A stretch of 64,000 nt of DNA from NCBI GenBank assembly GCA_043826505.1, contig JBDRQC010000004.1, positions 721,428 through 785,427 of the forward strand, given 5' to 3'. This document shows positions 14,847 to 57,452 of the stretch, piece by piece. The stretch is from Chrysiogenia bacterium (GTDB lineage: Bacteria > Acidobacteriota > Aminicenantia > UBA2199). Position 1 is the stretch's first letter. Each line of letters begins with the position of its first letter. The position numbers and the translations under genes were made by a program. Below the pieces are notes generated by a model, which saw only the letters and a program-made list of their open reading frames with translations, did not search any database and was not told where the DNA came from.

Positions 14847-17800
14847 CTAATCGCTTACCGCGACGGTTTTCATCTCGTTTCTGCCGAAATACTGCGGGTG
14901 GTACATGCCCTGGGCTATTGCGGGCATCCAGGTGAAGCGGCCGCTGTACATGGCTTTGATATAATACACTATGCGCAGGTTGCCCAGCATGGAATAGGTA
15001 TAGAAGACCAGGCGGTCGGCGGCGTTCTCCCGGCGCATCCATGGTGTCCGGTATTTGACCTGGTTCGCCGTGTTGAATTCCTTCAATGAACGGGTGCTGC
15101 CGATGTCCTGGCGCAGGAGCTCGAAACCGGCGGCCAGGGGCTCGTCAATGACGCCATAGGGGACCTCCTTGTCGGTCCTGAGGAGCAATTCCACCTGGTA
15201 GACCTGGCCGCGCTTGAATTGATCCACGGCCTGTCCCGTTTCGTTGTAGACCAGGCGCTGAATATCGATGCCGCGGCTTTTCTTTTTTGCCCTGGCCAAT
15301 TGATAGGTCAATTCGCTGGTGACATATACCGACTGGTCGGCCTTGACACTGACTTCGACCATTTCTTTTCGACCAGAGAGTTTTTTGCTGACACTGAGCA
15401 TATCCTGGTAGTCGGTGAATTCCTTGGCGGTTTTTTCGCCCAGAAAAACGATCTCCGCCTTGCGGGCCGTGGTTTTTTCTACTTTTGCCAGGTACTGGTC
15501 CATGGCGCACATGACCCAGAAGTTGGTCTGGGTCGTGTTCCAGCAGTAGGGCTCGGCCTCGAGCAGCCAGCGGATGATGCGTTCGGCCAGAACATGGCCG
15601 GCTTCCACTTCCAGGACGGCCTGAAGGAGCAGGGCAGTGGCGAAGCGCGAAGAGTAGAAAGGGAAGTCGCGGTGGTAGGCGAATTCGCCGGCGTCAAAGT
15701 AAGCGAAGTCAGCCTCGACCTGCAGACTGCTGTTGAACTCGGCCAGCATGGCTGCCAGGAGGTCGGCTGCTTTTCCCTGATTGTTCAGGGCCCGGTACAG
15801 GAAAACCCGGGCCGGCAGGGGCAGCGTGTCCCTTTCAGCAGCCAGCTTTTTCAGCTTTTTGCTATCGGCACTCCTGCTTAGGCTCAGAACAAATTGATAA
15901 AAGCTTTCGCAGGTCTTGTCCAGGCTGGCCCGCCGCAGGTATGCCGACAGCTTCTGCACCAGTTGCGGGTCCACCATGTAATCACGCTCCCGGGCCAGGT
16001 GCAGGCTCCAAAGGACATAGGCGGTCAGGTAGTCCGAGGTGTATTGGCCGCCGCGGTAGTATGAAAGGGCTCCTTGCGAATTCATGAATTCGGGGATGAT
16101 CTTCAGGTAGCCGTTCACGGCCTCTAGTACCTGCCCCTGGTCCAGTCCCAGCTCCAGGCGCTCTGCCAACTGCGGGCTGAATGCCAGGAAGGGCATCACC
16201 TTGGAAGCCCGCTGCTCCATGCATTCATAAGGATAGAAAACAAGTTTTTTGGCGATGTTGACGGCCGGCCGCAGCAGGGAGGGGGCGGCCTTGATAGTGA
16301 TGACCTGGTTTTCGGCTTCGGCCTGGGGCTCAATCATTTTTTTCAGGAACTTGCCGCTGGCGAAATCGATCAGGGTCTCCATGACCAGGCGGTCGGTCAC
16401 AGGCAATTTTTTCTGGAGCCCGTCCTTGTCCGCCCGGGAGACGGCATAAAAATCGATCTTGGCCTCGCCGAGGCGGTCGGCCAGAAAGGGGAATTGGAAC
16501 AGGCTGTTGCCGCGCGCATCCAGGGCGCGGGCAATCTGGGGGTTGCCGTTGATGCTTATCCCCTCCGGCTTGGCCAGTAGGGTGACCGGGAGTTTCTGCG
16601 TGGTGCGGTTGCTGAGCTGGACCCCGGCAAGGAACTCGTCGCCCCGGCGGGCAAACTCGGGCATGGCCTCGGAGATCAGCAGATCCTTGCTGACCATGAT
16701 CTTCTTTGCCGCTGAGCCAAAACTGTCCTCGCCGTAGGCCACGGCCATGATGCGAAAGGTGGAGAGCTGGTCCGAGCTTTCAAATTCAATTTCGGCATTT
16801 CCCCTGGCATCGGTTTCTATGTTTTTGAAGAACAGGACCTCGCGGAAGTCGCTGCGCACGCGGATGCCGGCAATATCGACCGGGACCCCGCCGAGAACTC
16901 CTCCGATCACACCGCCCTCGGCATCTTTCTCCCCTTTCTGGCGGGACATACTTTTCATCTCAGCGGCCATGGGAGCGGGCATGGCCCTGCCCGCGACCCC
17001 GCCCTCCACGCCGAACTCATCAGCGGAGTTCCAATATTTGTCCGCCGATACCGGGATCAGCGCCAGGTCGCAGGGGCGGTGATAATTGCCGTTAAAATAG
17101 ATATCGGACTTCAGGAAAGGATGAAAACCCTTGGCCTCGGCCTTGATCGCGTAACGGCCGCCGGGCAGGCCGGGAAAGCTGTAATATCCTTGCGCGCTGG
17201 TCGTGGTCGTTTTCAGCTTGTTGTGCTTTTCGTCTTCCAGGGTGACAGACGCCCCGGCCAGCGGCGTGGCGTCGGGCCTGAAAATGCAGCCGAAAATAGC
17301 GGGCTCCTTCAGGTCGATGTCCATCATGGGGCGTTCGAAGGTCCAGTGCATGTAGTTTTTTGAATAATAGGTCTGGATCGCATTTCGTCTCGACAAAGAA
17401 GAGTGATAAAAAAGCCTGATCGGGTCAGGGGTCCGGTAGCCCTGCAGGGAAAGGTTGCCCTCGTCCACGGCATAGACAAAAAGTTTGGCCTTCACTCCTG
17501 TTTTTTCTGCATTGCGCACGCGGATCTTCAGGGTGGTTTTGCCGGCCGGCTTGATCTCGGCCGGGCATTCCAGGCCGATATCCAAGGTCTTGCGGCTGTC
17601 TTCGACCATGAATTCTCTGGAGGCCTCCTCGGAGACATTGTTCTCGTACATGGCGACGACGCTGACGCGAAAGCCCGGAAAAAACTCTTTTTTAACAGGG
17701 ATCTCCAGTGGCGTCATCTTTTGCAGCTCGATGACACGGGAATCGAGCACTTTCCCCCTTTCTACGGTCACCAGCGCCTGACCCTCCCGGGTGGAATGAA

Positions 17801-20585
17801 TGAAGCACTTCAGCATCTCACCGTTGCGCAGAGTGGGTTGGTTGGATTCGATCCTCAGCCGGTCGGTTCCCTCGGAGTAGCCGCCGCCCCAGGAAAAGAA
17901 ACTGGCCGAGGTCGAAACCACGCGGCCGTTCACATCGGGGGTATCGCAGCGCAGAATATAATGGCCCGCTTCAGGAACGCGGAAAGCGCGGGTTTTGGTC
18001 TTTTCAATGAAAACATCGTCGGGACCGGATACTTTTTTTTGCAGGCGCCGGGATTTTTCATAATATTGCCTGTAGAGCGTGACGCGGACCTCACCGGAAA
18101 CGGGCTTTCCCTGGAAATCGACCAGGGCCAGCTTGGCGTTGACTTGTTCTTTCAGGTTCTGGTAATAGCCGATATGAATGCCGGTCAAAAGTTTTCCCGG
18201 AAAAAACAGCGATTGGGCACGGGCGGTGAATTCCTTGCCTTCAGCCGATTTCCCCGTTGCAGAAAAGCCGAGTTTGGCCAGGAAATTGGTTTTTTTTAAT
18301 TTGCTCATGGGGATGGCAAGCGTATGTTTGCCTCTCGCATCAAACTTGTCCCCCCCTTTCTGCGGCGGGTCGCTTTTTGCCAGGTCGCGGTCGAGGCCGA
18401 AACTGAACCGCTCCAGCCCATTGGCCGTGAACACTTTGGAATCGTTCGGCGCCAGTCCAAGCATATAATCGAAAGCATCACCAGCCATCGGATTGCCTGC
18501 CAGGTAGGAGCCGCTGACCAGCGGGCGGAACGTGTCTTCCGGCAGATAACGCTCCGCCACGCCGGAGATCTTCAATTCGAAGGTGTTAGGCTGGTAGTAA
18601 TCGATGGTCACGCCGTGCTGGGCTTGCCAGGTTTGCATGCCCGCGACCTTGACCAGGATCTGGTAATGCCCTTTCTTGCCGGCCGGGTCCGAATTGTAAT
18701 CATAATGAAATCCCCCCAGGGGATCGAGCTGCAGCGTATCAGTTTTGATCCGTTGCCAGTCCGGCCCCCTGATCTCCAGGGAAACCGATGTCGCTTTCGG
18801 CGAGGAGACCTTTCCAGAGGCATATTCCTTGACGATGCCGCCGATATGGACCGTATCGCCGGGCTTGTAGAAATCCCGCTCGCTGAACAAGGTGATCCTG
18901 ACCTCGCGGTCGGATGGGGGGCGGCGGTCTATTTTGGCCAGCGCCATGTCGCCGGCGTCGGTATTTTTAGCCGTAATCAGGTCGGTTTTCTGGATCTCCC
19001 TGGAGCTGAGCAGCACGCCTTCAGCAGAGGATTCCCCGAGCGGCTGTGCTTCCTGGCCATATCCTTTGAGAAAGAACGGTATCTTGCCCAACCCTTTGCC
19101 GCTGCGGTTGTCGTACAGCCAATACAGGGTCTGTCCCTGGCCGGCCTTGACCACCATATCCATGTTGCGGCGGTGAAAGACCTGCAATTCGTCGGGACGC
19201 GCCATGGGCAGGCGCATCAGGGCGATGTCGCGGCAGGAGTTGTAAGGCTCATAGCGCTGGACAAGGAATGCAAAGAAGCCCAGGGGCGAGCCCAGTTCAT
19301 TGCCCTTCAGTGCGGGGTTGTTAGATTTTTCCGGCAGGTCGGTCAGCTTTTGCAGGATCTCTTTCTCGACGAATTCAGCCTTGAAATCCCTGCGCTGCAG
19401 CATGCCGAAATCCCGGTTCGTTAACTGGGTATAGAATTCGGGCTTGAGCTTGAGCAGGCGGACACTGGCTTGCTTCATGCTTTTGGCGGTCATGGCCAGT
19501 TTTTTATTCTGCATGGAAAAATCGAGGCGCGGCGAGCGGCTGGAGCAGACCGCGGCTTCGATTTCCAGGCCCTCGGGCAGCCGCTCATTGTAGATGTTGG
19601 TCAACTTCCGATCGATGCGGATGCTCAGGCGGTCGTCCGAAGCCAGCTCGTCGTCAACGCGGATGAACAAGGTATGGTTCTCGTAATGACGGGACTGGAG
19701 GCGGAACGTCAATGGGATTTTATCCTGGCCAACTGATTTAAATATCTTGATGAGGGCGGGATCCGCTTCAGCCAGCCTATTGGCAAAAGGCAGTTGGCAA
19801 TAAGGCGAGTCGGGATAGAGGACCAGGGGCCGTGTTCCTGTGTAGTTGAAATCCGGCACGGTGTCAAAGCTGAAAGTGAATTCCTTGCCGGTCCCCGTGC
19901 TCCCTTCGCTGCCGCAAAAACCTCTTTTAATGATAAATTGATAAAGCATCCCCCGTTCCAGGTCCCTAGCGTAGCTTATCTTGAGCTCCTCTGCTGTTTG
20001 TTGGGAAACCTGGATCGTGACCTGCTTGCCGCTCTTGGCCTCTTTCAGGATGAAGAACTCCTTGGCGCTGCCTGCTGCCACTTCCTGATTGAAGCGCAGG
20101 GTGAAGGCGTCTTTCACCCAAACCTGAAAGTTCAATTTTTCTCCGGCATTTAAATCGGAAAAATAACTCCGGGCCGCTGGCTTGATCTCAACAGGAAATG
20201 CTTGCGGTGTGCTCCATTGCCAGCGCAAGGTCCGCGGCAGGAACTTTCCCGAAAGAGACCGCGTCCCGGCCGGAATTACGGCGGTATAAGTGGTGGAATA
20301 ACGAAAACGGGTCTCGGGCTTGAAGGCCAGGGTGCGGTTGCCGCGCCAGGTGAACTCACCCTTGATTGACGGCGTGATCTGCACGATGGCGCTGCCTGCT
20401 CTTTTTCCCCCCAAAGGCAGCATGTCGTCGGAAAACGTGACGACCAGTTCCTTGTCAGCAAGGTTTTGCAGGTTTCCCGACAGGTTGTATATAACTTTTA
20501 ATTCATCCTTATTCGGGTTCCCGGCCAGTGCCGTGGCCAAAAACACGGTCATGGTGATCGTCAATATTGCAAGTATGGTTTTCAT
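14847..20585 (-). CDS. Large secreted alpha-2-macroglobulin-family protease-trapping protein with a thioester
   Basis: 1912 aa. Signal peptide, repeated MG-type beta-sandwich regions, A2M segment RVRSDFREVLFFKNIETDARGNAEIEF, thioester motif YPYECMEQ and a C-terminal receptor-binding-like domain. AAAGGAGG RBS. Confidence 0.85.
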   Translation of the reverse strand: MKTILAILTITMTVFLATALAGNPNKDELKVIYNLSGNLQNLADKELVVTFSDDMLPLGGKRAGSAIVQITPSIKGEFTWRGNRTLAFKPETRFRYSTTYTAVIPAGTRSLSGKFLPRTLRWQWSTPQAFPVEIKPAARSYFSDLNAGEKLNFQVWVKDAFTLRFNQEVAAGSAKEFFILKEAKSGKQVTIQVSQQTAEELKISYARDLERGMLYQFIIKRGFCGSEGSTGTGKEFTFSFDTVPDFNYTGTRPLVLYPDSPYCQLPFANRLAEADPALIKIFKSVGQDKIPLTFRLQSRHYENHTLFIRVDDELASDDRLSIRIDRKLTNIYNERLPEGLEIEAAVCSSRSPRLDFSMQNKKLAMTAKSMKQASVRLLKLKPEFYTQLTNRDFGMLQRRDFKAEFVEKEILQKLTDLPEKSNNPALKGNELGSPLGFFAFLVQRYEPYNSCRDIALMRLPMARPDELQVFHRRNMDMVVKAGQGQTLYWLYDNRSGKGLGKIPFFLKGYGQEAQPLGESSAEGVLLSSREIQKTDLITAKNTDAGDMALAKIDRRPPSDREVRITLFSERDFYKPGDTVHIGGIVKEYASGKVSSPKATSVSLEIRGPDWQRIKTDTLQLDPLGGFHYDYNSDPAGKKGHYQILVKVAGMQTWQAQHGVTIDYYQPNTFELKISGVAERYLPEDTFRPLVSGSYLAGNPMAGDAFDYMLGLAPNDSKVFTANGLERFSFGLDRDLAKSDPPQKGGDKFDARGKHTLAIPMSKLKKTNFLAKLGFSATGKSAEGKEFTARAQSLFFPGKLLTGIHIGYYQNLKEQVNAKLALVDFQGKPVSGEVRVTLYRQYYEKSRRLQKKVSGPDDVFIEKTKTRAFRVPEAGHYILRCDTPDVNGRVVSTSASFFSWGGGYSEGTDRLRIESNQPTLRNGEMLKCFIHSTREGQALVTVERGKVLDSRVIELQKMTPLEIPVKKEFFPGFRVSVVAMYENNVSEEASREFMVEDSRKTLDIGLECPAEIKPAGKTTLKIRVRNAEKTGVKAKLFVYAVDEGNLSLQGYRTPDPIRLFYHSSLSRRNAIQTYYSKNYMHWTFERPMMDIDLKEPAIFGCIFRPDATPLAGASVTLEDEKHNKLKTTTTSAQGYYSFPGLPGGRYAIKAEAKGFHPFLKSDIYFNGNYHRPCDLALIPVSADKYWNSADEFGVEGGVAGRAMPAPMAAEMKSMSRQKGEKDAEGGVIGGVLGGVPVDIAGIRVRSDFREVLFFKNIETDARGNAEIEFESSDQLSTFRIMAVAYGEDSFGSAAKKIMVSKDLLISEAMPEFARRGDEFLAGVQLSNRTTQKLPVTLLAKPEGISINGNPQIARALDARGNSLFQFPFLADRLGEAKIDFYAVSRADKDGLQKKLPVTDRLVMETLIDFASGKFLKKMIEPQAEAENQVITIKAAPSLLRPAVNIAKKLVFYPYECMEQRASKVMPFLAFSPQLAERLELGLDQGQVLEAVNGYLKIIPEFMNSQGALSYYRGGQYTSDYLTAYVLWSLHLARERDYMVDPQLVQKLSAYLRRASLDKTCESFYQFVLSLSRSADSKKLKKLAAERDTLPLPARVFLYRALNNQGKAADLLAAMLAEFNSSLQVEADFAYFDAGEFAYHRDFPFYSSRFATALLLQAVLEVEAGHVLAERIIRWLLEAEPYCWNTTQTNFWVMCAMDQYLAKVEKTTARKAEIVFLGEKTAKEFTDYQDMLSVSKKLSGRKEMVEVSVKADQSVYVTSELTYQLARAKKKSRGIDIQRLVYNETGQAVDQFKRGQVYQVELLLRTDKEVPYGVIDEPLAAGFELLRQDIGSTRSLKEFNTANQVKYRTPWMRRENAADRLVFYTYSMLGNLRIVYYIKAMYSGRFTWMPAIAQGMYHPQYFGRNEMKTVAVSD
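16212..16223 (-). other. Thioester motif C-M-E-Q of the A2M protein
   Basis: The reverse complement of ctgctccatgca is TGC ATG GAG CAG. It is in frame with the ORF (16212-14847 is divisible by 3). Confidence 0.8.
16861..17300 (-). other. Atypical bait-position insert in the A2M ORF: CarboxypepD_reg-like beta-sandwich (~17050-17300) plus a Gly/Ala/Met low-complexity tract (~16861-17049)
   Basis: GASVTLEDEKHNKLKTTTTSAQGYYSFPGLPGGRYAIKAEAKGF is followed by EGGVAGRAMPAPMAAEMKSMSRQKGEKDAEGGVIGGVLGGVPV. Both lie immediately upstream of the conserved A2M segment. Confidence 0.55.
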
Positions 20586-24614: not shown

Positions 24615-27600
24615 ATGGTAAAAAGATGGATACTCATGATATTGATCGGATTAAGCGTTACTTCAATCCTGGCTCAGGAACGCCTGCGCTGCAAGCAATT
24701 GTCCTTGGACCAGGGACTTTCCCAGAGTTCTATTTTCACTATTGTCCAGGATAAATCAGGCTTCATCTGGATCGGCACCGAATCGGGGCTCAACCGCTAC
24801 GACGGCTATCAGTTCAAGGTTTACAGGCAGGATGTGGATGATCCCAATAGCTTGAGCAACAATATTGTCGAGTCTCTGCTGGTCGATTCGAGCGGAACAT
24901 TGTGGGTGGGAACAGACAATGGGCTCTGCCGCTATGTCCTTGAAAAGGATCATTTTGTTTCTTATCTGCATGATCCAAAAAAGAATGATTCGTTGAGCAA
25001 TAATCGTGTCTTTAACATTTATGAAGACAGTTCGGGAAATCTCTGGATTGGGACGGACGGAGGGTTGAATTGCCTGGACCGGCAAAGCGGCCGGTTCCAG
25101 CGTTTTCAAACCAAGCGCGATGCCAGCGCCACTTTGAGCCATAATCATGTACGCTCCATTCTCCAGGATCACCATGGTTTCCTCTGGGTGGGGACGGCTG
25201 GTGGCGGCCTTAACCGTTTAAATCTCCAGACTGGGCAGTTCGATCATTTTCGCCAGGCAGCGACTGAGGAAACCAGCATCAGTGACGATACGGTACTCGC
25301 CCTTTATGAGGACTCCTCAGGCAATCTCTGGGTGGGGACGCGAAAAGGTCTTGATCGCCTCGATCCTTCCCGTCAATCTTGCCAGCACTACCGGCACAAT
25401 CCCAACGACCCTTTCAGCTTGAGCAATGACTGGATAAACTGCATCTACAAGGACCGCTCAGGAGTTTTGTGGATCGGGACCAATGAAGGGGGAGTCAATA
25501 AATACCTGCCTGAAAGAAACGGATTCACCAGCTTTCGGCACAATCCGAACGATGTGACCAGCCTTGCTGGCGACCGGATTCGCGCCGTTATCGAGGATGA
25601 TTCGGGAAACATCTGGTTCGGAACCTACGAAGCCGGTATCTCCAAATACAACAAGGCTATCGCCAAATTCAAGCTCTACCATTCCGAACCCAACAACCCA
25701 AACAGCTTAAGCAGCAGCGATGTGAGGCAAATTTTCAAGGAAGATCAGAATATTATCTGGGTGGCTACGGAAGGCGGCGGTTTGAATCGTATTGACCGGG
25801 CTAGCGGAACATACACTGTGTTCATGAAAAATCCGCTTGACCCGCAGAGTATATCATCCAATCATCTTTTTTCCATTTTAAAAGATCGTGAAGGCATCAT
25901 GTGGATTACGACGGCTGATGGCGGTTTGAACAGGTTCGATGCCAAGCAGGGCAAATTTTCCCTTTATATGAACGATCCCCTCAATCCGCAGAGCATCAGC
26001 CATAACTTTATACGCACCATTGCCGAAGACCGCGCCGGCTACCTATGGCTCGGCACGGACGGTGGCGGAATGAACCGCTTTGACAAAAAAACCGGCCTCT
26101 GCAAAAGGTTTCTGCCGGAGCCGGAAAACCCCAACAGTTTGAGTTCTTTAAGAGTATTTTCCCTTTTTATTGATAAATCCGACATCATCTGGATCGGAAC
26201 CGGCGGCGGCGGATTGAACCGCTTCGACCCTGCTACGGAAACCTTCAAGGTCTTTCGTTATGATCCAAAAGTATCCGACGGTATCATGGATGATTATGTC
26301 ATATGCCTAACTGAGGACAGCCGCGGTTTTCTCTGGCTGGGAACAGCGCAAGGCTTGACACGGTTTGATCGCGAAAAGGAGGTGTTTCGCACCTACACCG
26401 AGAGGGATGGCCTCCCCGACCATACGATTTACGCTGTTGTCGAGGATCGGCAAAAAAATCTTTGGGTGACCACGAACCGTGGCTTGTCGCGTTTCAATCC
26501 GCTCACCGGAAAATTCAAAAATTTCCATTTAGATGATGGCCTGCAGGGTTATGAATTCAACACCTATAGTTTCTGCAAAGGTGATGATGGAGAGCTTTTT
26601 TTCGGCGGTATTCAGGGACTCAATTCTTTTTATCCCGAGCAGATCACTGATAATCCCCACATCCCCTCCATCGTGCTAACTCGTTTTCAACTCTTGAATA
26701 AAGATGTCCCCATTGGCAAAAAAGTGGGGGGGCGGGTGGTGATGGACAAAAACATCGGTGCAACGGATGTGCTCACCCTTTCCTACAAACAGAATGTCTT
26801 TTCTTTTGAATTTGCGGCCCTTGATTATAAGGCGCCGGAAAAAAACCAGTACGCCTATATGATGGTTGGTCTGGACGAGGAGTGGAATTATGTGGGCAAT
26901 CGCCATTTTGTGGCCTATGCCGGCATCCCACCGGGGAAATATATGTTTCGCGTCAAGGGCTCCAACAACGACGGCGTTTGGAACATTAAAGGAGTGTCAT
27001 TGCGAATCACCATTACCCCGCCTTTCTGGCAGACCTGGTGGTTTAGAATTCTCATCGGTCTTTTAACTCTCATGGGGATCTTCTTTCTGTTCAGTTTAAG
27101 GATAAGAAATATGAAAGCCCATAAAGAAGAACTGGAGCGGTTGGTTGAGGCCAAAACACAGGAACTGAAGTACACCAATGAGCAATTGTTGAATGCCAAC
27201 AGCAGACTGGAATATCTGTCTTTGACCGATGCCCTGACTCAATTGCCCAACCGTCGCAATTTTGAATTGTTTTTTATCCAAGAATGGAATCGCTGTAATC
27301 GGGATTCCCAACCTTTGTCTTTGCTGATGATCGACATCGATTATTTCAAATATTTCAACGACACCTATGGCCATCTGATGGGTGATGAGTGTCTTAAAAA
27401 AATCTCCGCCATCATTAAAAAAAGCACTCCCAGGACCTCTGATTTTTCAGCCCGGCTGGGCGGAGAAGAATTTATCATCGTTTTATCCAACACGCCGGTT
27501 CCCGGAGCCGTTCTTGTGGCTGAAAGATTGCGCTCAAGAGTGGAAGAAGCGGCTATCGTCCATAAAGGCTCCAAGGTCAATTCGGTGGTAACCATAAGCA

Positions 27601-27725
27601 TTGGAGTGGGCACAATGACTCCCAAGCAAGATGTGGAAAGCGATTATTTGATCAGTATTACCGATCAGGCATTGTATCAGGCTAAGCAGGATGGCCGTAA
27701 CCGCTATGCCGTTATCAATATCTGA
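24615..27725 (+). CDS. Periplasmic beta-propeller (two-component regulator propeller + Y_Y_Y) sensor diguanylate cyclase
   Basis: 1036 aa. Signal peptide, many LWIGTxxGLNRxD blade repeats, one TM helix (WWFRILIGLLTLMGIFFLF), a coiled coil and a GGDEF domain. The active site GGEEF (27459-27473) and the I-site RTSD five residues upstream are both intact. Confidence 0.85.
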   Translation: MVKRWILMILIGLSVTSILAQERLRCKQLSLDQGLSQSSIFTIVQDKSGFIWIGTESGLNRYDGYQFKVYRQDVDDPNSLSNNIVESLLVDSSGTLWVGTDNGLCRYVLEKDHFVSYLHDPKKNDSLSNNRVFNIYEDSSGNLWIGTDGGLNCLDRQSGRFQRFQTKRDASATLSHNHVRSILQDHHGFLWVGTAGGGLNRLNLQTGQFDHFRQAATEETSISDDTVLALYEDSSGNLWVGTRKGLDRLDPSRQSCQHYRHNPNDPFSLSNDWINCIYKDRSGVLWIGTNEGGVNKYLPERNGFTSFRHNPNDVTSLAGDRIRAVIEDDSGNIWFGTYEAGISKYNKAIAKFKLYHSEPNNPNSLSSSDVRQIFKEDQNIIWVATEGGGLNRIDRASGTYTVFMKNPLDPQSISSNHLFSILKDREGIMWITTADGGLNRFDAKQGKFSLYMNDPLNPQSISHNFIRTIAEDRAGYLWLGTDGGGMNRFDKKTGLCKRFLPEPENPNSLSSLRVFSLFIDKSDIIWIGTGGGGLNRFDPATETFKVFRYDPKVSDGIMDDYVICLTEDSRGFLWLGTAQGLTRFDREKEVFRTYTERDGLPDHTIYAVVEDRQKNLWVTTNRGLSRFNPLTGKFKNFHLDDGLQGYEFNTYSFCKGDDGELFFGGIQGLNSFYPEQITDNPHIPSIVLTRFQLLNKDVPIGKKVGGRVVMDKNIGATDVLTLSYKQNVFSFEFAALDYKAPEKNQYAYMMVGLDEEWNYVGNRHFVAYAGIPPGKYMFRVKGSNNDGVWNIKGVSLRITITPPFWQTWWFRILIGLLTLMGIFFLFSLRIRNMKAHKEELERLVEAKTQELKYTNEQLLNANSRLEYLSLTDALTQLPNRRNFELFFIQEWNRCNRDSQPLSLLMIDIDYFKYFNDTYGHLMGDECLKKISAIIKKSTPRTSDFSARLGGEEFIIVLSNTPVPGAVLVAERLRSRVEEAAIVHKGSKVNSVVTISIGVGTMTPKQDVESDYLISITDQALYQAKQDGRNRYAVINI

Positions 27726-27843
27726 TTAAATTGCCAACCGATGATTTTTCCGACAATGGAAACAAACAATTTAAAGCAATGTTTTGCAAATACTTGCCGA
27801 AATAAATAAAAAAAGATTACAATGTCAACATAGGGAGAAAACA

Positions 27844-28551
27844 ATGGAGAATGAAAAAGTTCGTATCGCCATGATTTCCATGAACGAAGGCGGGGGCAAA
27901 TTTTATCATTTGCTTATTGAGCGCTTCAAAGAAGTTACTATTGAATTTTATAAGACCGTCGGTCAATTTAAAAAGGAATGCGGCGATAAAAAGTATAACG
28001 GCATTATTGTAGATATGTATACAATTGTCAGCGCCTCCACTGAAGAAAAGGGTTTTTTCTTTTCAATGCAAAAAGGACTGCCGGTGATGCAGATGAAGCA
28101 TGGATTTCAACCGCAGGAGGTCAGCGGCTTTATCGATCAAAAAAAAGTGGGAAAGCTGTCAGGAATCGAGTTTGTGGAAAATTTTATCCACACGAGTTGC
28201 ATGAAGATACCGCCGCGCGGCATCAGGTTGTTCGAAAGAAAAAAGATTCTTTTGAAGATCCAGCTTTTATTGACACAAAAGGATCTTCCGATCAAGGGCG
28301 AGTTGTTGGATATCTCACAGGAAGGGTGTTTCATTATGGTGCCTCATGAAGTGAGCATACAAAATGAAAACAGAATTTGGATCACTATCAACGATCTGAT
28401 GGATAAAGATTTAATAGCATGCAGCGTAAAATGGAAAAAAACTCAACTAACTAATGATAAATCAGTTGTTGGATTGGGGGCCAAATTTGAAAAAATATCC
28501 AAGAAACAGAAAACGGAAATTCTCGATTTATTAAAAAATGCCAGCTCCTGA
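27844..28551 (+). CDS. Stand-alone PilZ-domain c-di-GMP receptor with a receiver-like N-terminal domain
   Basis: The C-terminal PilZ motifs are RLFER (RxxxR) and DISQEG (DxSxxG, about 28309-28326). Start at the ATG at 27844, with an AGGGAG RBS. Confidence 0.7.
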   Translation: MENEKVRIAMISMNEGGGKFYHLLIERFKEVTIEFYKTVGQFKKECGDKKYNGIIVDMYTIVSASTEEKGFFFSMQKGLPVMQMKHGFQPQEVSGFIDQKKVGKLSGIEFVENFIHTSCMKIPPRGIRLFERKKILLKIQLLLTQKDLPIKGELLDISQEGCFIMVPHEVSIQNENRIWITINDLMDKDLIACSVKWKKTQLTNDKSVVGLGAKFEKISKKQKTEILDLLKNASS

Positions 28552-51143: not shown

Positions 51144-51268
51144 GAATCAGATCACAATCATACAATATCATGGCTGTTTTGTCAACCAAAAATTGCATTC
51201 CTTCCAACGTGGCCGCGGCTTGACAACTTGCTGGCCATGGATTATAAACTTTCCGGAGGTAGCCCGCC

Positions 51269-53296
51269 ATGACGCAGAATCGGAACGATAACCGGCGCCT
51301 GTCTTTGCCTGAACAATTGCCGGTCAAAAAAGATTTTATTTCCGGCATCCGGCGAGCCCCGGATCGGGGATTTTGCCTTAGCCCCGCCCAAACCAGGATA
51401 GCCCTGAAAAATGCATTGCGCTATATCCCCACCCCGCTCCATAAAGAGATCGCGCCCGAGTTCATGGATGAGTTGCTCAACCATGGGCGCATATATGGCT
51501 ACCGTTACCGACCGGAGGGCAGCCTGAAAGCCCGTCCGCTGGATGAATATCCGGGGAAAATCCTCGAGGCCAAGGCCTTTCAGGTGATGATCGACAATAA
51601 CCTGGATTTCGACGTTGCCCTTTATCCCTATGAACTTGTGACCTATGGCGAGAGCGGCCAGGTTTTTCAGAACTGGATGCAATACAATCTGGTCAAGTTG
51701 TATCTGCAGGAGATGACCGACCGGCAGACGCTGGTGGTTTATTCCGGACATCCGCTCGGCCTTTTTGAATCCCCTGCCGATGCGCCGCGGGTCATTGCCA
51801 CCAACGGCATGCTGGTGGGCATGTACGACAATCTGGCTGGTTTTGCCCAGGCTGCGGCCATGGGGGTTTCCAATTACGGACAGATGACGGCCGGGGGCTG
51901 GATGTATATAGGACCCCAGGGCATCGTTCACGGCACCTACCTGACCTTGCTCAATGCCGGGCGCATGTATCTGGGAATTCCCGCTCAAAAGGACTTGGCA
52001 GGAGTGGTTTATCTTAGCTCCGGACTGGGCGGCATGAGCGGTGCCCAGGCCAAGGCCGTGGAGATAGCCGGAGGTATCGGGGTGTTGGCCGAAGTCGACT
52101 ATTCGCGCATCGTAACCAGGCACAAGCAGGGCTGGGTATCGAAAATTTCTTCCAACCTCGATGAGATCGCCCGCTGGTTGGACGAATATCGCAAAAGCAA
52201 AAAACCCATATCGATCGCCTATCACGGTAATGTTGTGGATCTATGGGAATATGTGTTGAGCCACGATATCCCCATTGAGCTGGCCTCGGATCAAACTTCG
52301 TGCCACGATGTCTACGGTGGCGGCTATACTCCGGCCGGCGTTACTTTTGAGGAAGGGCGGCGCTTGCTGCGAGAGCAGCCTGCTGAGTTCCGCAGGCGGG
52401 CCGACGAGTCGCTGATCAGGCAATTCCGCCTGATTCAAAAAATGGCACCCAAGGGTACCCGTTTCTGGGATTACGGCAATTCTTTTTTAAAGGCAGTATT
52501 TGACGCCGGCGCCACCGACATCACGGCCAACGGGCTCGATGCCAGCGACGGCTTCATCTTTCCCAGCTATGTCGAACATATCATGGGCCCGCTGTGTTTT
52601 GACTATGGTTACGGTCCTTTTCGCTGGGTGTGCTTGAGCGGCAAGGCCGAAGATTTGGCAAAGACCGATCGGGCCGCCATGTCGTGCCTTGATCCCGACC
52701 GCCGGGCCATGGACCGCGATAATTTCGAGTGGATCAGGAATGCCGGCAAGAACAAACTAGTGGTCGGCACCCAGGCGCGTATCCTCTATGCCGATGCCGA
52801 GGGCCGGGTGAGAATCGCCCTGAAATTCAATGAGTTGGTGCGTCAGGGCGTAATCGGTCCGGTGATGCTGGGACGCGATCATCATGATGTTTCCGGCACA
52901 GATTCCCCTTTCCGGGAAACAGCCAACATCCGTGATGGCAGCAACCTGACCGCCGACATGGCCGTGCACAACTTCGCCGGTGACGCCGCCCGCGGCATGT
53001 CCATGGTCGTGCTCTCCAATGGCGGCGGCGTGGGCATCGGCAAGGCATTCAATGGCGGTTTCGGCCTGGTCCTGGACGGCAGCGAGCGCCGCGACCGCAT
53101 CATCGCTTCGGCCATGGAATGGGATGTGCTCAATGGCATCGCCCGCCGCGCCTGGGCCCGAAATGAAAACGCCATGGAAACCGCCGCTGCCTGGAATGGC
53201 CAGCACCCGGAACGCGGCCACATCACCCTGCCCCATTTGGCCGACGACAAACTGGTCAACGACCTGGTCAAGAAGAGCTTCCCAGAGAAAAAATAA
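51269..53296 (+). CDS. hutU: Urocanate hydratase family protein, long (675-aa) form
   Basis: LVTYGESGQVFQNWMQY, TLVVYSGHPLG, SGLGGMSGAQ (NAD site) and GRDHHD. GGAGG RBS. No other hut genes in the window, so the substrate is not certain. Confidence 0.75.
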   Translation: MTQNRNDNRRLSLPEQLPVKKDFISGIRRAPDRGFCLSPAQTRIALKNALRYIPTPLHKEIAPEFMDELLNHGRIYGYRYRPEGSLKARPLDEYPGKILEAKAFQVMIDNNLDFDVALYPYELVTYGESGQVFQNWMQYNLVKLYLQEMTDRQTLVVYSGHPLGLFESPADAPRVIATNGMLVGMYDNLAGFAQAAAMGVSNYGQMTAGGWMYIGPQGIVHGTYLTLLNAGRMYLGIPAQKDLAGVVYLSSGLGGMSGAQAKAVEIAGGIGVLAEVDYSRIVTRHKQGWVSKISSNLDEIARWLDEYRKSKKPISIAYHGNVVDLWEYVLSHDIPIELASDQTSCHDVYGGGYTPAGVTFEEGRRLLREQPAEFRRRADESLIRQFRLIQKMAPKGTRFWDYGNSFLKAVFDAGATDITANGLDASDGFIFPSYVEHIMGPLCFDYGYGPFRWVCLSGKAEDLAKTDRAAMSCLDPDRRAMDRDNFEWIRNAGKNKLVVGTQARILYADAEGRVRIALKFNELVRQGVIGPVMLGRDHHDVSGTDSPFRETANIRDGSNLTADMAVHNFAGDAARGMSMVVLSNGGGVGIGKAFNGGFGLVLDGSERRDRIIASAMEWDVLNGIARRAWARNENAMETAAAWNGQHPERGHITLPHLADDKLVNDLVKKSFPEKK

Positions 53297-53303
53297 CTGT
53301 AGC

Positions 53304-53410
53304 GGCGACCCGTTGGGTCGCCCTGATGACGAGTAGGTCGCCCTTCTGTTATTCCCCGACATTTATGGCGTTTTAGCGGAACGCCCCTACCGATTCCCCG
53401 ACATCCATGG
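53304..53410. repeat. Composite REP-like element: two hairpins plus short direct repeats
   Basis: Hairpin GGCGACCC-GTT-GGGTCGCC (53304-53322). Half-site repeat TAGGTCGCCC (53334-53343). Direct repeats ATTCCCCGACATNNATGG (53351-53368 and 53393-53410, 16 of 18 identical). Hairpin GGCGTT-N7-AACGCC (53367-53385). CGCCCCTAC (53382-53390) is the reverse complement of the GTAGGGGCG at 41943. Confidence 0.6.
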
Positions 53411-53522
53411 GAGCACAGCCGGGATATATAGAGAGCAATGTGTGAGGTGGTTTTAAATGCGGTTTTTTGTTTGTTTGGGCGATTTATTTAGCAAATTCTT
53501 ATGAAATTCCAAGAAAAAACGA

Positions 53523-53551
53523 TTGAATCAGCGTCAATTTTCCTTTATAAT
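53523..53551 (+). promoter_or_regulatory. Putative sigma70 promoter of the speE-fusion gene
   Basis: TTGAAT (53523-53528), 17-nt spacer, TATAAT (53546-53551). AAGGAG RBS at 53575-53580. Confidence 0.5.
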
Positions 53552-53589
53552 GAAATCTGTTCGCATGTAGAAGCAAGGAGAAAATACTC

Positions 53590-55353
53590 ATGGGTTTGGT
53601 AAAAAAAGGAAAAGAACTCTGGTTTTATGAACAGCTTTATACCGACACTACCTACGGTTTTAAGGTGTCCAGGGTGATTGTTCCCGAAACCGACACCGGC
53701 TTTCAAAAATTGATGATCCTGGAAACCGACCGCTTCGGCCGGGTGTTGGTGTTGGACGGCATCGTGCAGCTGACCGAAGAGGACGAGGGCATCTACCATG
53801 AGTGGATTGCCCACTGGCCGATCTTCGCCCTGAACCGGCCGGCCAGGCACGTGCTGATCATCGGCGGCGGCGACTGCGGCGTGGCCCGCGAAGTGCTCCG
53901 CCATAAATCGGTGCAAAAGGTGACCATGGTGGAGATCGATAAAATGGTCTGCGACCTGTGCCGCGAGCATATGCCGTCGATATGCGAGGGAGTGTACGAG
54001 GATCCCCGCTTCAAACTGATCATTGGTGACGGAGCCGAAGCGATCCGGCAAATGAAGGGAAAATGCGATGTGATCGTCATCGATTCCACCGATCCGATCG
54101 GGCCGGCCAAGAGCCTGTTCAACACCGACTTTTATCAAAGCGTTTATGACGCCCTGGTCGAAGGCGGTATTACCATCCACCAGACCGGGGCGTTGATTCT
54201 GCAGCCGTTCGAATGCCCGGGCAGCTGGCGGCAGATCGAGCGCAGCTTTGATGATGTCCGGGTGGTGCAATTCGCCAATGTGAGTTATATGGGCGGCCCC
54301 TTCAGCCTGACCGCCGGTTCCAAAGGCGGGAACGTATTCAAAAACGCCGAACGCAATGCCCAGAAGGCCTACAAAAAAGCGGGTTTCAAGACCAGCTGGT
54401 ATTCGCCGCAGATCCCGGCCATCCCCTATCCTGAATTTCAGAAAAGGCTGGAAACCGACAAATACGGCGAAGAGATTGTTATGAACATTGAACTTCCGGC
54501 CAACAGTTCTCCCGGGGCAAGGCAAGTGGAAAGATGGGCCAAGCAAACCTGCACGGCAATCAAGATGAAAACATTCGGCGAACCGATCATGGCCAGTTCA
54601 AAGTTGGCTGATGGGGACACGCTGGTGCAATACGTGGAAACCAGCGCCATCAATTACCGGCGCCACGGGCGGGTAGCGGCGCTCAATTGCTTCACCTGCG
54701 CCTACTTGCCGGTAAATGACGCCATCAAAACTTCGATCGATTATTTCAAGGCCGCTAAAGCGCTTTGCTGGCACCTGCCGCGCGGTTCTTTTGCCGACAT
54801 AAAAAAAATAAGAAAAAACACCAGAATCTTTGAATACAGATTGAGCGCTGACAAAATCTCGCAGGTTTTTCAACCGCGCCTGATCGAAAGCAGCGAGGCA
54901 TTTGCTCCTGGTTTTCTTTTTTTCCGAGAAAAGGGAACGGCGGCGTTTGAATTGGTCATGGACCTGTACGATTGCGATTACGCTAAGATTTCAAGCCCGG
55001 CCGTAGTGGCCCGCTGGGCTGGAAACGAATTTCCGAAAACAACCGGGCTGAAAACCATAGGCAAGGCCGATGCGCCCGATTTTGGCCATGCCAAGAAAAA
55101 AACAGCCGGGCCGTCCGTGGTGCAGCTGTTCCAGGGTGGTTCCAATATCAGCCACTATTCGGTCAACTGGCTTATGATCGTGGTCAATGTCGTGGCCAAA
55201 CAGGAGTTCTCCCTGGAGAAGGCCATTCGCCGGACCATGAAATATTTCAAGGGCAAATATGCAGTTTGCTGGCTTCTGCCCCGGGGCAATGCCGGGCAGT
55301 CTCTGAAAAAGCTCGCCGACAGCACCTTTATTTTTGAGGTCAAGGGCAAGTAG
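53590..55353 (+). CDS. Spermidine synthase (aminopropyltransferase) fused to two tandem AdoMetDC-like (SpeH-fold) modules
   Basis: Residues 1 to about 288 are SpeE (VLVLDG, IIGGGDCGVAREVLRH, VIVIDSTDPIGPA). Residues from about 293 to 587 form two modules, each resembling class-1 pyruvoyl AdoMetDC and ending CWHLPRG / CWLLPRG. Confidence 0.7.
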   Translation: MGLVKKGKELWFYEQLYTDTTYGFKVSRVIVPETDTGFQKLMILETDRFGRVLVLDGIVQLTEEDEGIYHEWIAHWPIFALNRPARHVLIIGGGDCGVAREVLRHKSVQKVTMVEIDKMVCDLCREHMPSICEGVYEDPRFKLIIGDGAEAIRQMKGKCDVIVIDSTDPIGPAKSLFNTDFYQSVYDALVEGGITIHQTGALILQPFECPGSWRQIERSFDDVRVVQFANVSYMGGPFSLTAGSKGGNVFKNAERNAQKAYKKAGFKTSWYSPQIPAIPYPEFQKRLETDKYGEEIVMNIELPANSSPGARQVERWAKQTCTAIKMKTFGEPIMASSKLADGDTLVQYVETSAINYRRHGRVAALNCFTCAYLPVNDAIKTSIDYFKAAKALCWHLPRGSFADIKKIRKNTRIFEYRLSADKISQVFQPRLIESSEAFAPGFLFFREKGTAAFELVMDLYDCDYAKISSPAVVARWAGNEFPKTTGLKTIGKADAPDFGHAKKKTAGPSVVQLFQGGSNISHYSVNWLMIVVNVVAKQEFSLEKAIRRTMKYFKGKYAVCWLLPRGNAGQSLKKLADSTFIFEVKGK

Positions 55354-55473
55354 TTTCGGATGGTCGTTTTCTGATCAAAATTGTCCAAGGGTGGGTTTAT
55401 GGCACGGCAGCTATTTGTTAATAAGTTGATGATAGGGCACTCAACTAAAATTTATATTTCAGTTATTAAATTG

Positions 55474-55502
55474 TTGACAAATTGGAAAAATTGGCATATA
55501 TT
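55474..55502 (+). promoter_or_regulatory. Putative sigma70 promoter of dnaK
   Basis: TTGACA (55474-55479), 17-nt spacer, TATATT (55497-55502). AAGGAG RBS at 55521-55526. Confidence 0.55.
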
Positions 55503-55532
55503 TAAGTACTAGAAAAAATTAAGGAGTTAAAT

Positions 55533-57452
55533 ATGGGCAAAATAATCGGTATTGACTTGGGAACAACCAATTCGGTTGTGGCGATAATGGAAAAGGGTGA
55601 TATTAAGATTATCACCAATTCCGAAGGTGGCCGGACCACCCCATCGGTGGTCGCTTTTACCAAGGATGGCGGCCGGCTTGTCGGCCAGGTGGCCAAACGC
55701 CAATCGATCACCAATCCGGAGAACACTGTCTATTCCATCAAGCGCTTCATGGGACGCAGAATCTCTGAAGTCAGCGATGAAATCAAAATGGTTCCCTTCA
55801 AAGTGGTGGGCGGGCCCAACGATGATGCCCGCGTCAGCATTGAAGGCAAACAATATTCACCTCCCGAGATCTCGGCCCTGATTTTGCAGAAACTCAAGGA
55901 ATCGGCTGAGGACTATCTCGGGGAAAAGGTCACCGAGGCGGTCATAACTGTCCCGGCCTATTTTAATGATGCCCAGCGCCAGGCTACCAAAGATGCTGGA
56001 AAAATAGCCGGTCTGGACGTGAAGCGCATCATCAACGAACCTACGGCCGCAGCCCTGGCTTACGGCATGGACAAGAAAAAAGATGAGTTGATCGCCGTCT
56101 ATGATTTTGGCGGCGGCACATTCGATATTTCCATCCTTGAGATCGGCGAAAATATCGTTGAGGTTAAATCGACCAATGGAGACACCCATCTGGGTGGCGA
56201 CAACATCGACCAGAAGTTGATCGACTGGATCGCCGAGGAATTCAAAAAAGATCAGGGCATCGATCTGACCAAGGACAAGATGGCCTTGCAGCGCCTGAAG
56301 GAAGCAGCCGAAAAAGCCAAGATCGAACTCTCAACCACACAGGAAACCGAGATCAACCTTCCTTTCGTCACGGCCGACGCTTCGGGACCCAAGCACCTGA
56401 TCCTCAAATTAAGCCGAGCCAAGCTGGAACAACTGGTCGGAGACATACTTGAACGGTCCATTGCTCCCTGCCGGCTGGCTATCAAGGACGCCGGAGTGAG
56501 TACTGCCGATATCAAGGAGATCATCCTGGTTGGCGGCATGACCCGCATGCCCTACATACAGGAATTGGTCAAGAAGCTTTTTGGAAAGGAAGGCAATAAA
56601 AGCGTGAATCCTGATGAAGTGGTCGCGGCCGGCGCCGCGGTTCAGGGCGGTGTCCTGGGCGGTGAAGCCAAGGATATACTGCTACTGGATGTCACGCCGT
56701 TGTCGTTGGGCATTGAAACCATGGGCGGTATTTCACACAAATTGATCGAGCGCAACACCACGATCCCGACCAAGAAAACCGACATTTTCACCACCGCTGA
56801 AGACAATCAGTCCACCGTGGAAATCCATATCCTTCAGGGAGAAAGGGAGATGGCTCGCGATAACCGCACTCTGGGTAAGTTTCACCTGACCGGCCTGCCG
56901 CCCGCGCCGCGCGGGGTTCCCCAGGTTGAAGTAACTTTTGATATCGATGCCAACGGCATTTTGAATGTGTCGGCCAAGGATCTGGCCACCTCCAAGCAGC
57001 AGGCCATCACCATCACCTCATCGAGCGGCCTCAATGACAAAGAGATCGACAAAATGGTCAAAGACGCAGAAAAATTCCGCGAAGATGACCAGCAAAAGAA
57101 AGAGGCTATTGAAAATCGCAACAAGCTAGATCAATTGTCCTACGCCCTGGAAAAACTGGTAAAAGAGAACAAGGAAAAGATCCCCGCGGACATGGTCAGT
57201 GAAGTCGAAACTGCAGTTAAACGCGCCAGGGAAGCGGTGGAAAAAGGGGACAATCAGAAGATCATCGAAGAGATAGAAAATATCAATAAATTATCCGGCA
57301 AGCTATCTACTGAAATGTACAAGACGGCCGGCGCCCAAAAAGAGCCCCAACCCGGGCCCGATACAGACAAAGCGCCGGAAGCCGAGGCCGCTGCCAGCGA
57401 AGGCGAGGTCATCGATGCCGAATTCGAGGACATCGGCAAGGACAAAAAGTAA
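55533..57452 (+). CDS. dnaK: Molecular chaperone DnaK (Hsp70)
   Basis: 639 aa. [31 protein letters not shown]. No grpE or dnaJ adjacent. Confidence 0.95.

Follow-up and report, generated by a model that had tools for sequence, protein, structure and literature searches.

A spermidine synthase fused to two SpeDC-type decarboxylase modules that may share a single active site in Aminicenantes-type bacteria

What follows the spermidine synthase domain in a bacterial gene whose annotation ends with that domain, and what might the additional part contribute to polyamine synthesis? The gene in question lies at positions 53590..55353 (+) of a 64-kb stretch of DNA from contig JBDRQC010000004.1, which was analysed as a whole and which we call the window. 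It encodes a protein of 587 aa and 65.9 kDa, identical to GenBank MFH2107967.1, which is described as "polyamine aminopropyltransferase [Chrysiogenia bacterium]" and comes from a 788-kb contig of a metagenome-assembled genome (MAG). Other members of its cluster carry the labels Aminicenantes, Acidobacteriota, Chrysiogenales or Patescibacteria, and the annotation of all of them stops at SpeE. An original prediction, made from the letters alone, had proposed that the protein is a complete SpeE aminopropyltransferase (APT) fused to a divergent tandem pair of modules resembling S-adenosylmethionine decarboxylase (AdoMetDC). The open reading frame (ORF), all of the peptide strings that it quoted and the codons that it gave for Ser352 (54643-54645) and Ser518 (55141-55143) are present as described. 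Our analysis agrees on this architecture and points to a particular function: with a probability of roughly 0.5, we propose that the protein is a SpeE fused to a single-site, pseudo-dimeric pyruvoyl decarboxylase of the SpeDC type that supplies putrescine from ornithine.

The C-terminal half of the protein consists of two homologous AdoMetDC-fold modules in tandem, and the signal for this is well above chance. Alignments, an AlphaFold2 model, Foldseek and hhalign delimit module 1 (aa 292-417; 54463..54840, +) and, together with conservation, module 2 (aa 450-587; 54937..55350, +), both of the SpeDC type; between them lies a linker (aa 418-449; 54841..54936, +) that is the least conserved segment of the protein, with a mean identity of 44%. 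The Pfam family AdoMet_dc (PF02675) matches the C-terminal half in two stretches, scoring 27.4 bits (E 4e-6) on the C-terminal fragment, 24.3 bits on the whole protein (cut-off 25) and 14.7 bits (E 0.039) on module 2 alone, and the same match is precomputed for the relatives P0031 and P0033-P0041. The two modules also recognise each other, with an E value of 2e-10 by BLASTP and of 5.6e-16 (probability 98.6%, 122 columns) by hhalign of their family profiles.

The structural evidence comes from an AlphaFold2 model of aa 284-587 built with 27 family sequences, which reached a predicted local distance difference test score (pLDDT) of 89.1 and a predicted template modelling score (pTM) of 0.90, and in which one order of strands and helices occurs twice. 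When this model was compared with the PDB by Foldseek, the top 15 matches were all AdoMetDC, and the model matched the alpha-beta-beta-alpha sandwich of the solved structures. The human proenzyme (1msv/1jl0) was matched across both modules (E 8e-8, probability 1.0, around 330 columns, identity of about 10%), as were the AdoMetDC and prozyme of Trypanosoma brucei (around 320-330 columns, probability 1.0). The class 1b enzymes of Thermotoga maritima (1tmi/1tlu/1vr7) and Aquifex each covered one module, with TMt values of 0.82-0.85 and root-mean-square deviations of 1.8-1.9 Å for T. maritima (1tmi: TMt 0.85, 1.8 Å) and 3.0 Å for Aquifex. Thus, the predicted tandem pair is borne out by Pfam, hhalign, AlphaFold2 and Foldseek, and the structure prediction that had been suggested as a check returns AdoMetDC-fold matches for both modules. 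Sequence searches of the PDB with the C-terminal half and with P0034, a stand-alone relative of the modules, did not find AdoMetDC; because the clade to which these sequences belong is too divergent for phmmer, Pfam, hhalign and Foldseek were required to make the connection. A Pfam scan of the protein at E<=10 gave no match to PF01536, the family to which the class 2 AdoMetDC of eukaryotes belongs.

The AdoMetDC fold is home to more than one activity, and Li et al. 2023 (Li, Liang, Phillips & Michael, JBC 299:105005; PMC10407285) showed biochemically that SpeDC is a pyruvoyl L-ornithine decarboxylase derived from class 1b AdoMetDC. To which branch do the fused modules belong? A single-module query taken from P0031 finds stand-alone PF02675 proteins of about 122 aa that bear the motif VQLIETSAIxGHF....AYLNIFSC, and profiles of this stand-alone family (QLIETS..GHF..YLNIFSC, hereafter ETS) match module 1 with an E value of 1e-22 and module 2 with one of 4.4e-21 by hhalign. 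Against canonical SpeD, module 1 reaches an E value of 4.8e-4 (probability 32%) and module 2 gives no match, and phmmer with canonical SpeD as the query misses ORF 53590-55353. The canonical class 1b SpeD proteins recovered here read ..AESHISIHTWPE....DIF[MT]CG and align without gaps to the ETS proteins from the GxS motif to the Cys, with Thr over Glu, Ser over Ser and His over His; the canonical examples used for comparison come from L001, L056, L063, L071 and L072. In a neighbour-joining (NJ) tree built without bootstrap, both modules are nested among the ETS sequences, at a distance from canonical SpeD.

The ETS motif is that of the validated enzyme. In Fig. S5 of PMC10407285, QLIETS..SGHF...Y[IL]D[IV]FSC belongs to the SpeD2 domain of the SpeD1SpeD2 proteins of D. 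phosphitoxidans and Omnitrophica, with the pyruvoyl Ser marked at ETS; when this Ser is substituted (S229A), L-ornithine decarboxylase activity disappears and AdoMetDC activity is retained (PMC10407285). Given this figure and the profile placement of the modules, the Thr-Ser dipeptide of module 1 is the ordinary dipeptide of a neofunctionalised clade and not a decayed Glu-Ser. The residues diagnostic for ornithine decarboxylase (ODC) activity in SpeDC are Gln, Thr, Phe and Tyr (Fig. 8, PMC10407285). We mapped residues via family alignments and counted conservation over 55 full-length homologues, 43-47% identical at the extremes. In the window protein, the Gln (Gln347 and Gln512) and the Thr (Thr351) are kept, Phe is replaced by Tyr523 (51 Tyr and 4 Phe among the homologues), and Ala364 and Val531 stand where the Tyr would be. 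Among the single-module relatives, P0031 retains the Gln, Thr and Tyr and has its Phe replaced by Tyr, and P0052 has all four. Bona fide AdoMetDC, for its part, is marked by a completely conserved Pro, as in HTWPE (PMC10407285). Module 1 reads ETSAINYRR and module 2 QGGSNISHYSVNW, and both lack the Pro and the Glu of the canonical ESH[IL][ST][IL]H[TS][WY]PE. From these features, the modules appear to belong to the ornithine-decarboxylase (SpeDC) branch of the fold rather than the branch that decarboxylates AdoMet, since the hallmarks of bona fide AdoMetDC are missing from both. The original prediction had also offered, as its second option, a neofunctionalised decarboxylase, and the clade evidence favours precisely this.

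One half of the AdoMetDC-fold sandwich supplies the pyruvoyl Ser together with the Cys, and the other supplies the His and, in AdoMetDC, the Glu (PMC1282579). Class 1b enzymes combine both sets of residues and form homodimers, and the eukaryotic enzyme corresponds to a fused pair in which the C-terminal half no longer cleaves itself (PMC1282579). The catalytic residues of T. maritima are S63, H68 and C83 (PMC10407285). In the window protein, the full set of equivalents is obtained only across both modules, as S352 and C370 of module 1 and H522 of module 2, all of which are invariant. Toms et al. 2004 are reportedly also behind the statement of which half of the fold supplies which residue.

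Module 1 carries the predicted autoprocessing bond, Thr351-Ser352 (54640..54645, +), with Ser352 as the pyruvoyl precursor, an assignment based on the gapless alignment to SpeDC-type proteins and canonical SpeD, on Fig. S5 of PMC10407285 and on conservation. E350, T351, S352 and A353 are invariant in all 55 homologues, and Gln347 and Cys370 are likewise kept in 55 of 55; Cys370 (54697..54699, +), within an FTC motif, aligns with the proton donor Cys83 of T. maritima. The His of this module has been lost through a two-residue deletion, and residue 355 is Asn or Ser in the family (N355 in the window protein). The Ser position at -8 is occupied by Thr344, and the FG...S loop is shorter by four residues. 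Module 2 presents the complementary picture. It keeps a YDC motif, a full FG...GPS loop and Gln512, and it provides His522-Tyr523 (55153..55158, +), which alignments and conservation equate with His68 of T. maritima and the SpeDC-diagnostic Phe; His522 is found in 55 of 55 homologues and is predicted, from this mapping, to serve the pyruvoyl site of module 1 across the pseudo-dimer interface. Its position for the Cys, residue 537, is R, K, N or D in the family (Lys537 in the window protein), and the structural equivalent of the processing Ser is Gly517 (55138..55140, +), again in 55 of 55, which marks a dead site. We place Gly517 at the Ser position because module 2 aligns to the family without gaps, and the DSSP assignment of the model is in register: in module 1 the turn falls at E350-T351 and the strand restarts at S352, and in module 2 the turn falls at Q515-G516 and the strand restarts at G517.

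As residue mapping, conservation and DSSP register agree, one predicted composite site (S352, C370, H522 and S509) is complete and invariant and the reciprocal site (G517, residue 537, N355 and T344) is dead. The idea of a fused pseudo-dimer with complementary halves, which had been put forward from the FTC Cys, confined like the Thr-Ser to module 1, and from the YDC motif, confined to module 2, is strengthened by the catalytic His, which the analysis finds in module 2 alone. The same proposal had treated Gly-Ser518 as a second cleavage site, which we reject. Ser518 is one residue out of register by both alignment and DSSP, 1 of the 55 homologues has Ala there, and the site would have neither a Cys (R, K, N or D at residue 537) nor a partner His (N or S at residue 355).

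Ser509, the fourth member of the composite site, ends a conserved loop, APDFGHAKKKTAGPS (aa 495-509; 55072..55116, +), that was delimited by alignment, model pLDDT and conservation. It is equivalent to Ser55 of T. maritima, lies at -8 from the Ser position and is invariant in the 55 homologues. The AKKK tip of the loop is the only internal segment of the model with a pLDDT below 50, although the loop is strongly conserved in these homologues. Judging from the model, this Lys-rich stretch is probably a flexible active-site loop, and it could act as a lid, as a carboxylate-binding element or as a contact to SpeE.

The N-terminal half raises fewer questions. The SpeE domain (aa 1-283; 53590..54438, +) was delimited by Pfam, NCBIfam, E. 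coli SpeE (3o4f) and column counts. It scores 288 bits over aa 8-275 with NCBIfam NF002010, "polyamine aminopropyltransferase" (cut-off 260), and matches Pfam Spermine_synth (PF01564; E 2e-47, 161 bits) and the tetramerisation domain Spermine_synt_N (PF17284; E 4e-10, 40 bits); its TIGR00417 score of 239 is slightly below the cut-off of 249.55. E. coli SpeE 3o4f matches aa 11-278 (E 4e-59), its catalytic and binding motifs line up with those of the window protein, and the domain is nearer to it (203 bits) than to the Thermus thermophilus enzyme 1uir (136 bits). GGGD (aa 92-95), YH (aa 69-70), E115-I116 of VEID and D165, D168 and P169 of DSTDP (aa 165-169) are invariant among the 55 homologues, and S166 and T167 of DSTDP are nearly so. 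The N-terminal half is a normal, complete SpeE aminopropyltransferase, as had been predicted. Its Gly-rich loop reads GGGDCG (aa 92-97) and not the usual GGGDGG, and residue 96 (53875-53877) is Cys in 27 of the homologues and Gly in 28. The final SpeE helix, PEFQKRLE, is followed at once, with no linker, by KYGEEIVM, the strand with which module 1 opens.

The neighbours of related genes offer further indications of function. A canonical speD and the stand-alone ETS gene P0037 overlap at the end of the former, and two fusions of SpeE to a single module, P0045 (L072) and P0050 (L071), have a canonical speD with the motif VSESH[IL]T[IL]HTWPE..DVFFCN directly upstream. In a third locus, L056, a tandem fusion is followed by a 362-aa protein in which a full AdoMet_dc domain (109 bits, AESHISLHTYPE...DIFTCG) is fused to a partial APT domain. 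Since a separate AdoMetDC adjoins the fusion genes, such a role for the fused modules would be redundant. No ureohydrolase or agmatinase gene was found beside the fusions in L056, L071 and L072, which mildly favours ornithine over arginine as the substrate. The neighbouring speD agrees with a scheme in which decarboxylated AdoMet (dcAdoMet) is produced by SpeD and the amine acceptor by the SpeDC-like part, and the two are then linked by SpeE.

The cluster in L056 (9131-13988), labelled Patescibacteria, has in order the tandem fusion (591 aa), the AdoMetDC-partial APT protein (362 aa), an ATP-grasp protein (336 aa) that resembles D-Ala-D-Ala ligases and, as the last member, a second SpeE, which stands alone (296 aa). 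The position of the ATP-grasp gene between two aminopropyltransferases suggests a polyamine-conjugating step. A homologue search with the SpeD-APT protein of this locus returned proteins of Patescibacteria only, and no Aminicenantes SpeD orthologue was among them. Thus, L056 is a genuine genome of Patescibacteria, the candidate phyla radiation (CPR), and horizontal transfer is therefore implied; the fusion was probably acquired from the Aminicenantes lineage.

How might such a protein work? According to the reading that we prefer, the two modules would pack within one chain in the manner of the protomers of a class 1b dimer or the halves of the eukaryotic AdoMetDC, as the model predicts. Self-cleavage between Thr351 and Ser352 would convert Ser352 into the pyruvoyl cofactor, with His522 and Ser509 of module 2 assisting cleavage and cofactor formation, if the homology holds. 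The calculated products are 39.5 and 26.5 kDa; the former, a beta chain comprising SpeE and the first strands of module 1, would be held to the latter, the alpha chain, via their shared sheet. The pyruvoyl group would then form a Schiff base with L-ornithine, CO2 would be lost and Cys370 would protonate the intermediate to yield putrescine, the identity of the substrate being the least certain element of the scheme. The fused SpeE would move an aminopropyl group from dcAdoMet onto that putrescine to give spermidine, with the dcAdoMet coming, presumably in this organism too, from a separate canonical SpeD. The second potential site, formed by Gly517, residue 537 and Asn355, would be dead.

Several observations weigh against this proposal. 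Neither a canonical speD nor any other polyamine gene accompanies the fusion within the 64-kb window. A second AdoMetDC-like gene was sought there with an ETS-family hidden Markov model, two canonical class 1b SpeD proteins and E. coli SpeD, and no E value was better than 0.7; Pfam annotation of around 40 window genes returned housekeeping and unrelated functions only, and speA, speB, speC and speD were not found. Across the relatives, polyamine genes adjoin just 1 of 57 tandem-fusion loci (L056). The decarboxylase activity of the SpeE-fused members is one that we infer from homology, and the geometry of the composite site likewise depends on homology mapping. Finally, compared with validated SpeDC, the fused subfamily differs in two of the four diagnostic residues (Tyr to Ala364/Val531 and Phe to Tyr), has FTC and not FSC and includes a distinctive HYS[PV][HN]W segment; its specificity may therefore have changed. 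An arginine decarboxylase from Pelagiphage HTVC201P nests within the SpeDC clade (PMC10407285).

These departures lend some substance to a variant in which the architecture is as described and the substrate is another amino acid, mainly L-arginine, which would give agmatine for a SpeE that works as an N1-aminopropylagmatine synthase, but possibly also lysine or 2,4-diaminobutyrate. Switches between ornithine and arginine have occurred several times in this fold, also within the SpeDC clade (PMC10407285), bacterial SpeE homologues that use agmatine exist (PMC11107197), and the loss of the diagnostic Tyr and the family's own signatures, HYS[PV][HN]W and PDFGH.K.KTAG.S, could reflect such a switch. 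Nevertheless, we consider it unlikely, as the Gln and Thr of the ODC-diagnostic set are invariant, no agmatinase gene lies near the fusions in the three clusters described above and the SpeE domain is nearest to the putrescine-using E. coli enzyme.

The fusion partner consumes dcAdoMet, and the tandem could be a true, though divergent, AdoMet decarboxylase that passes its product directly to SpeE, in keeping with the original idea of a one-polypeptide machine for dcAdoMet production and aminopropyl transfer. The Pfam AdoMet_dc match, the existence of functional AdoMetDC-APT fusions (with the opposite domain order), the lack of a canonical speD within the window and the Pro that several single-module fused relatives carry at His+3, as in HTWPE, could all be cited in its favour. 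The details of the modules argue otherwise, and we give this possibility little weight: Thr-Ser, Gln and the other SpeDC signatures stand where ESH..HTWPE would be expected, the profile distance from canonical SpeD is large while that from SpeDC is small, and the acidic ribose-binding residue that follows the His in AdoMetDC, E72 in T. maritima and E247 in human (PMC1282579), is absent from HYSVNW. The relatives with an adjacent canonical speD (L056, L071 and L072) would, moreover, have no need of a second AdoMetDC. It seems similarly improbable that the tandem is catalytically dead and serves SpeE as an oligomerisation or regulatory scaffold, comparable to the AdoMetDC-like N-domain of spermine synthase in humans or to the prozyme of T. 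brucei. As a catalytic unit, module 2 has clearly degenerated, the retention of inactivated AdoMetDC-fold domains for dimerisation has precedent (PMC12803844) and the prozyme itself is among the Foldseek matches. Yet Q347, T351, S352, C370, S509 and H522 are invariant in the 55 sequences while the other site drifts, a pattern to be expected of a working single site rather than of a scaffold.

Parts of the proposed ornithine-decarboxylating fusion have been described in other systems. The closest is SpeDC (Li et al. 2023), with which the window protein shares the AdoMetDC fold, VQ[LF]IETS with the Thr-Ser processing site, the diagnostic Gln and Thr, the spacing that puts the His 5 and the Cys 20 residues after the Ser (kept in module 2 and in the single-module relatives) and, among relatives, an occurrence beside a separate canonical speD. 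In contrast to SpeDC, it splits the catalytic set over two modules and joins them to the C-terminus of SpeE, it has lost the diagnostic Tyr and has Tyr for Phe and FTC for FSC, and its activity is a predicted one. The SpeD1-SpeD2 tandems of the same paper also have two AdoMetDC-fold domains per chain; in that of V. vadensis, the C-terminal domain is degraded and only the N-terminal domain self-cleaves (PMC10407285). These tandems, however, combine two different paralogues, a bona fide SpeD and a SpeDC, and carry no SpeE domain, whereas both modules of the window protein are of the SpeDC type and stem from an internal duplication, with SpeE as an additional domain. The V. vadensis N-domain keeps Ser, His and Cys together, while the division in the window protein is more strictly complementary, the His being found in the second module only.

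The eukaryotic class 2 AdoMetDC (human 1jl0/1msv and potato 1mhm) is also a single-chain pseudo-dimer in which the N-terminal half supplies Ser and Cys, the C-terminal half supplies His and cleavage of the C-terminal half has been lost (PMC1282579), and among the Foldseek matches that span both modules it ranks first. The likeness is architectural: there is no family-level sequence match, identity is about 10%, the predicted substrate differs and the window tandem appears to have arisen independently, by duplication in Aminicenantes-type bacteria. AdoMetDC-APT fusions (Pelagibacter, delta-proteobacteria and Krumholzibacteria, with animal spermine synthase derived from them) similarly unite both domain types in one polypeptide for polyamine synthesis, but in the window protein the APT comes first, and the decarboxylase is of the SpeDC type rather than a bona fide AdoMetDC and is duplicated. 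The fusions of SpeE to a single SpeDC-like module, such as P0031, share the direct joining of SpeE to an ETS-type module; unlike in the window protein, a single module unites Ser, His and Cys and thus presumably pairs between chains, and they are annotated as spermidine synthase only. Thus, fusions with an N-terminal AdoMetDC and a C-terminal APT, and SpeD1-SpeD2 tandems including degraded ones, are already known (PMC12803844, PMC11107197 and PMC10407285), while in the literature that we searched there was no account of APT-first fusions to SpeDC-type modules, single-module forms included, or of a tandem of like with like.

The distribution of the fusion sheds light on its origin. With the C-terminal 304 aa as the query, 32 proteins were found among 5.8 billion, one of them P0031 with its single module. 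A profile run against 1.84 billion cluster representatives gave 186 matches at E<=1e-3, of which one is a full-length tandem, around nine are SpeE::single-module fusions of 418-469 aa (P0031, P0045, P0048-P0050, P0052-P0054 and P0074) and the remainder are stand-alone proteins or SpeD1SpeD2. One match was discarded as a repeat-driven false positive: P0046, a eukaryote-like, Cys-rich repeat protein of 2705 aa, matched profile positions 273-305 in 27 stretches with an E value of 5e-27, which calls for caution with hit lists of that profile. In a scan of one genome per GTDB species, the tandem form was found in 57 loci, almost all of them in Ca. Aminicenantes MAGs and one in a complete 4.28-Mb chromosome, and nearly all with an uninterrupted frame of 590-650 aa. 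The recurrence in related genomes that had been named as a check on the fusion is therefore observed.

Some details of these loci deserve mention. In L050 (9133-10912) and L058 (9160-10918), the reading frame changes between SpeE and the tandem, with the switch at or near the junction; these splits are probably indel frameshift errors of long-read assemblies, but they could still be genuinely split gene pairs. One MAG, CAWIGG01, has three copies of the fusion on separate contigs (L042, L043 and L050), and another, CAWAOD01, has two. NCBI labels are inconsistent for MAGs with near-identical fusions (L003-L059), which appear as Chrysiogenales, Chrysiogenia, Spirochaetota, Brevinematales, Clostridia, Eubacteriales, Patescibacteria, Acidobacteria or Aminicenantes; they are probably mostly Aminicenantia.

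The window protein and P0031 are 50% identical across SpeE and one module, and each of the two modules is around 39-43% identical to the single module of P0031, compared with only 28-29% between module 1 and module 2. The NJ tree unites P0031 with the clades of module 1 and module 2 inside the clade of SpeE-fused single modules, which adjoins the stand-alone ETS clade and is far from canonical SpeD, and the module 1 and module 2 subtrees are congruent, with the same branching order. From the identities, the grouping in the tree and the congruent subtrees, it follows that the module was duplicated once, inside an existing fusion gene, before the lineages split. The tandem would thus have been born within a fusion of SpeE to a SpeDC-like module and its two modules would then have lost complementary catalytic residues. 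A weak alignment connects the inter-module linker with the tail at the C-terminus of SpeE, and the duplicated unit may, with low confidence, have included this tail. The 418-aa single-module fusion P0052 (L069:68-1324) carries the full SpeDC signature of Q, T, F and Y with FSC and groups in the tree with stand-alone SpeDC of the Omnitrophota type, apart from the other fused forms, a placement that suggests that SpeE-SpeDC fusions arose more than once.

Taken as a whole, this history is compatible with an independent re-invention, in Aminicenantes-type bacteria, of a eukaryote-style class 2 pyruvoyl decarboxylase: a SpeDC-like module duplicated within the gene, Ser and Cys lost from one copy and His from the other, and a single intramolecular site that remains attached to SpeE after self-cleavage and would lead from ornithine to putrescine and on to aminopropyl transfer. 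We hold this fuller scenario tentatively, at somewhat short of an even chance. If it is true, it would correct the annotation of a gene that is conserved across a whole uncultured class and is now called only "polyamine aminopropyltransferase" or "spermidine synthase", and it would predict a putrescine route in these organisms that needs no pyridoxal phosphate-dependent ODC or arginine decarboxylase. It would also add two undescribed architectures of the AdoMetDC fold, APT-SpeDC and APT-SpeDC'-SpeDC'', and provide a prokaryotic model for the transition from a homodimer with two shared sites to a single-chain pseudo-dimer with one. The joining of like domains is a step that has been inferred for the origin of the eukaryotic AdoMetDC and never observed; here, there would be an extant case of the route through duplication, fusion and subfunctionalisation, with ancestor-like single-module forms of the P0031 type still at hand for comparison. 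The hand-over of a substrate between an enzyme with a protein-derived cofactor and its downstream partner would also become testable, since SpeE would stay on the beta chain after self-cleavage.

A sigma-70-like promoter candidate, TTGAAT-17-TATAAT, precedes the gene at 53523..53551 (+), with 10 of 12 matches in a consensus scan, which makes it a pattern match only, and direct reading of the sequence gives a Shine-Dalgarno element, AAGGAG (53575..53580, +), 9 nt ahead of the ATG. A scan of 53200-55600 against Rfam returned zero matches, and we therefore expect no riboswitch there. The downstream gene, dnaK, has a promoter-like site of its own, and the fusion gene thus looks monocistronic. Across the 57 loci, the order urocanase-fusion-dnaK is found in around 20, and SurA-like or S41 protease neighbours are found in around 20 others. 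The upstream gene in the window encodes a urocanase homologue of 675 aa (51269-53296) in which all three Pfam urocanase domains start only at residue 87, corresponding to an N-terminal extension of about 85 aa compared with a typical HutU. Antisense ORFs of 200-333 aa overlap the SpeE and urocanase genes (53545-54546, 51242-52225 and 52757-53362, all on the - strand); similar shadow ORFs are seen in related loci, and we regard them as compositional artefacts and not as genes.

Elsewhere in the window, and unrelated to the fusion, lie genes for a bacterial alpha-2-macroglobulin of 1912 aa (14847-20585, -) and for a diguanylate cyclase of 1036 aa with Reg_prop, Y_Y_Y and GGDEF domains (24615-27725, +). 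The latter is followed by a gene for a PilZ-domain protein. A glycosyltransferase is encoded there as well, and the coordinates of these other genes include 27784-28551 (+).

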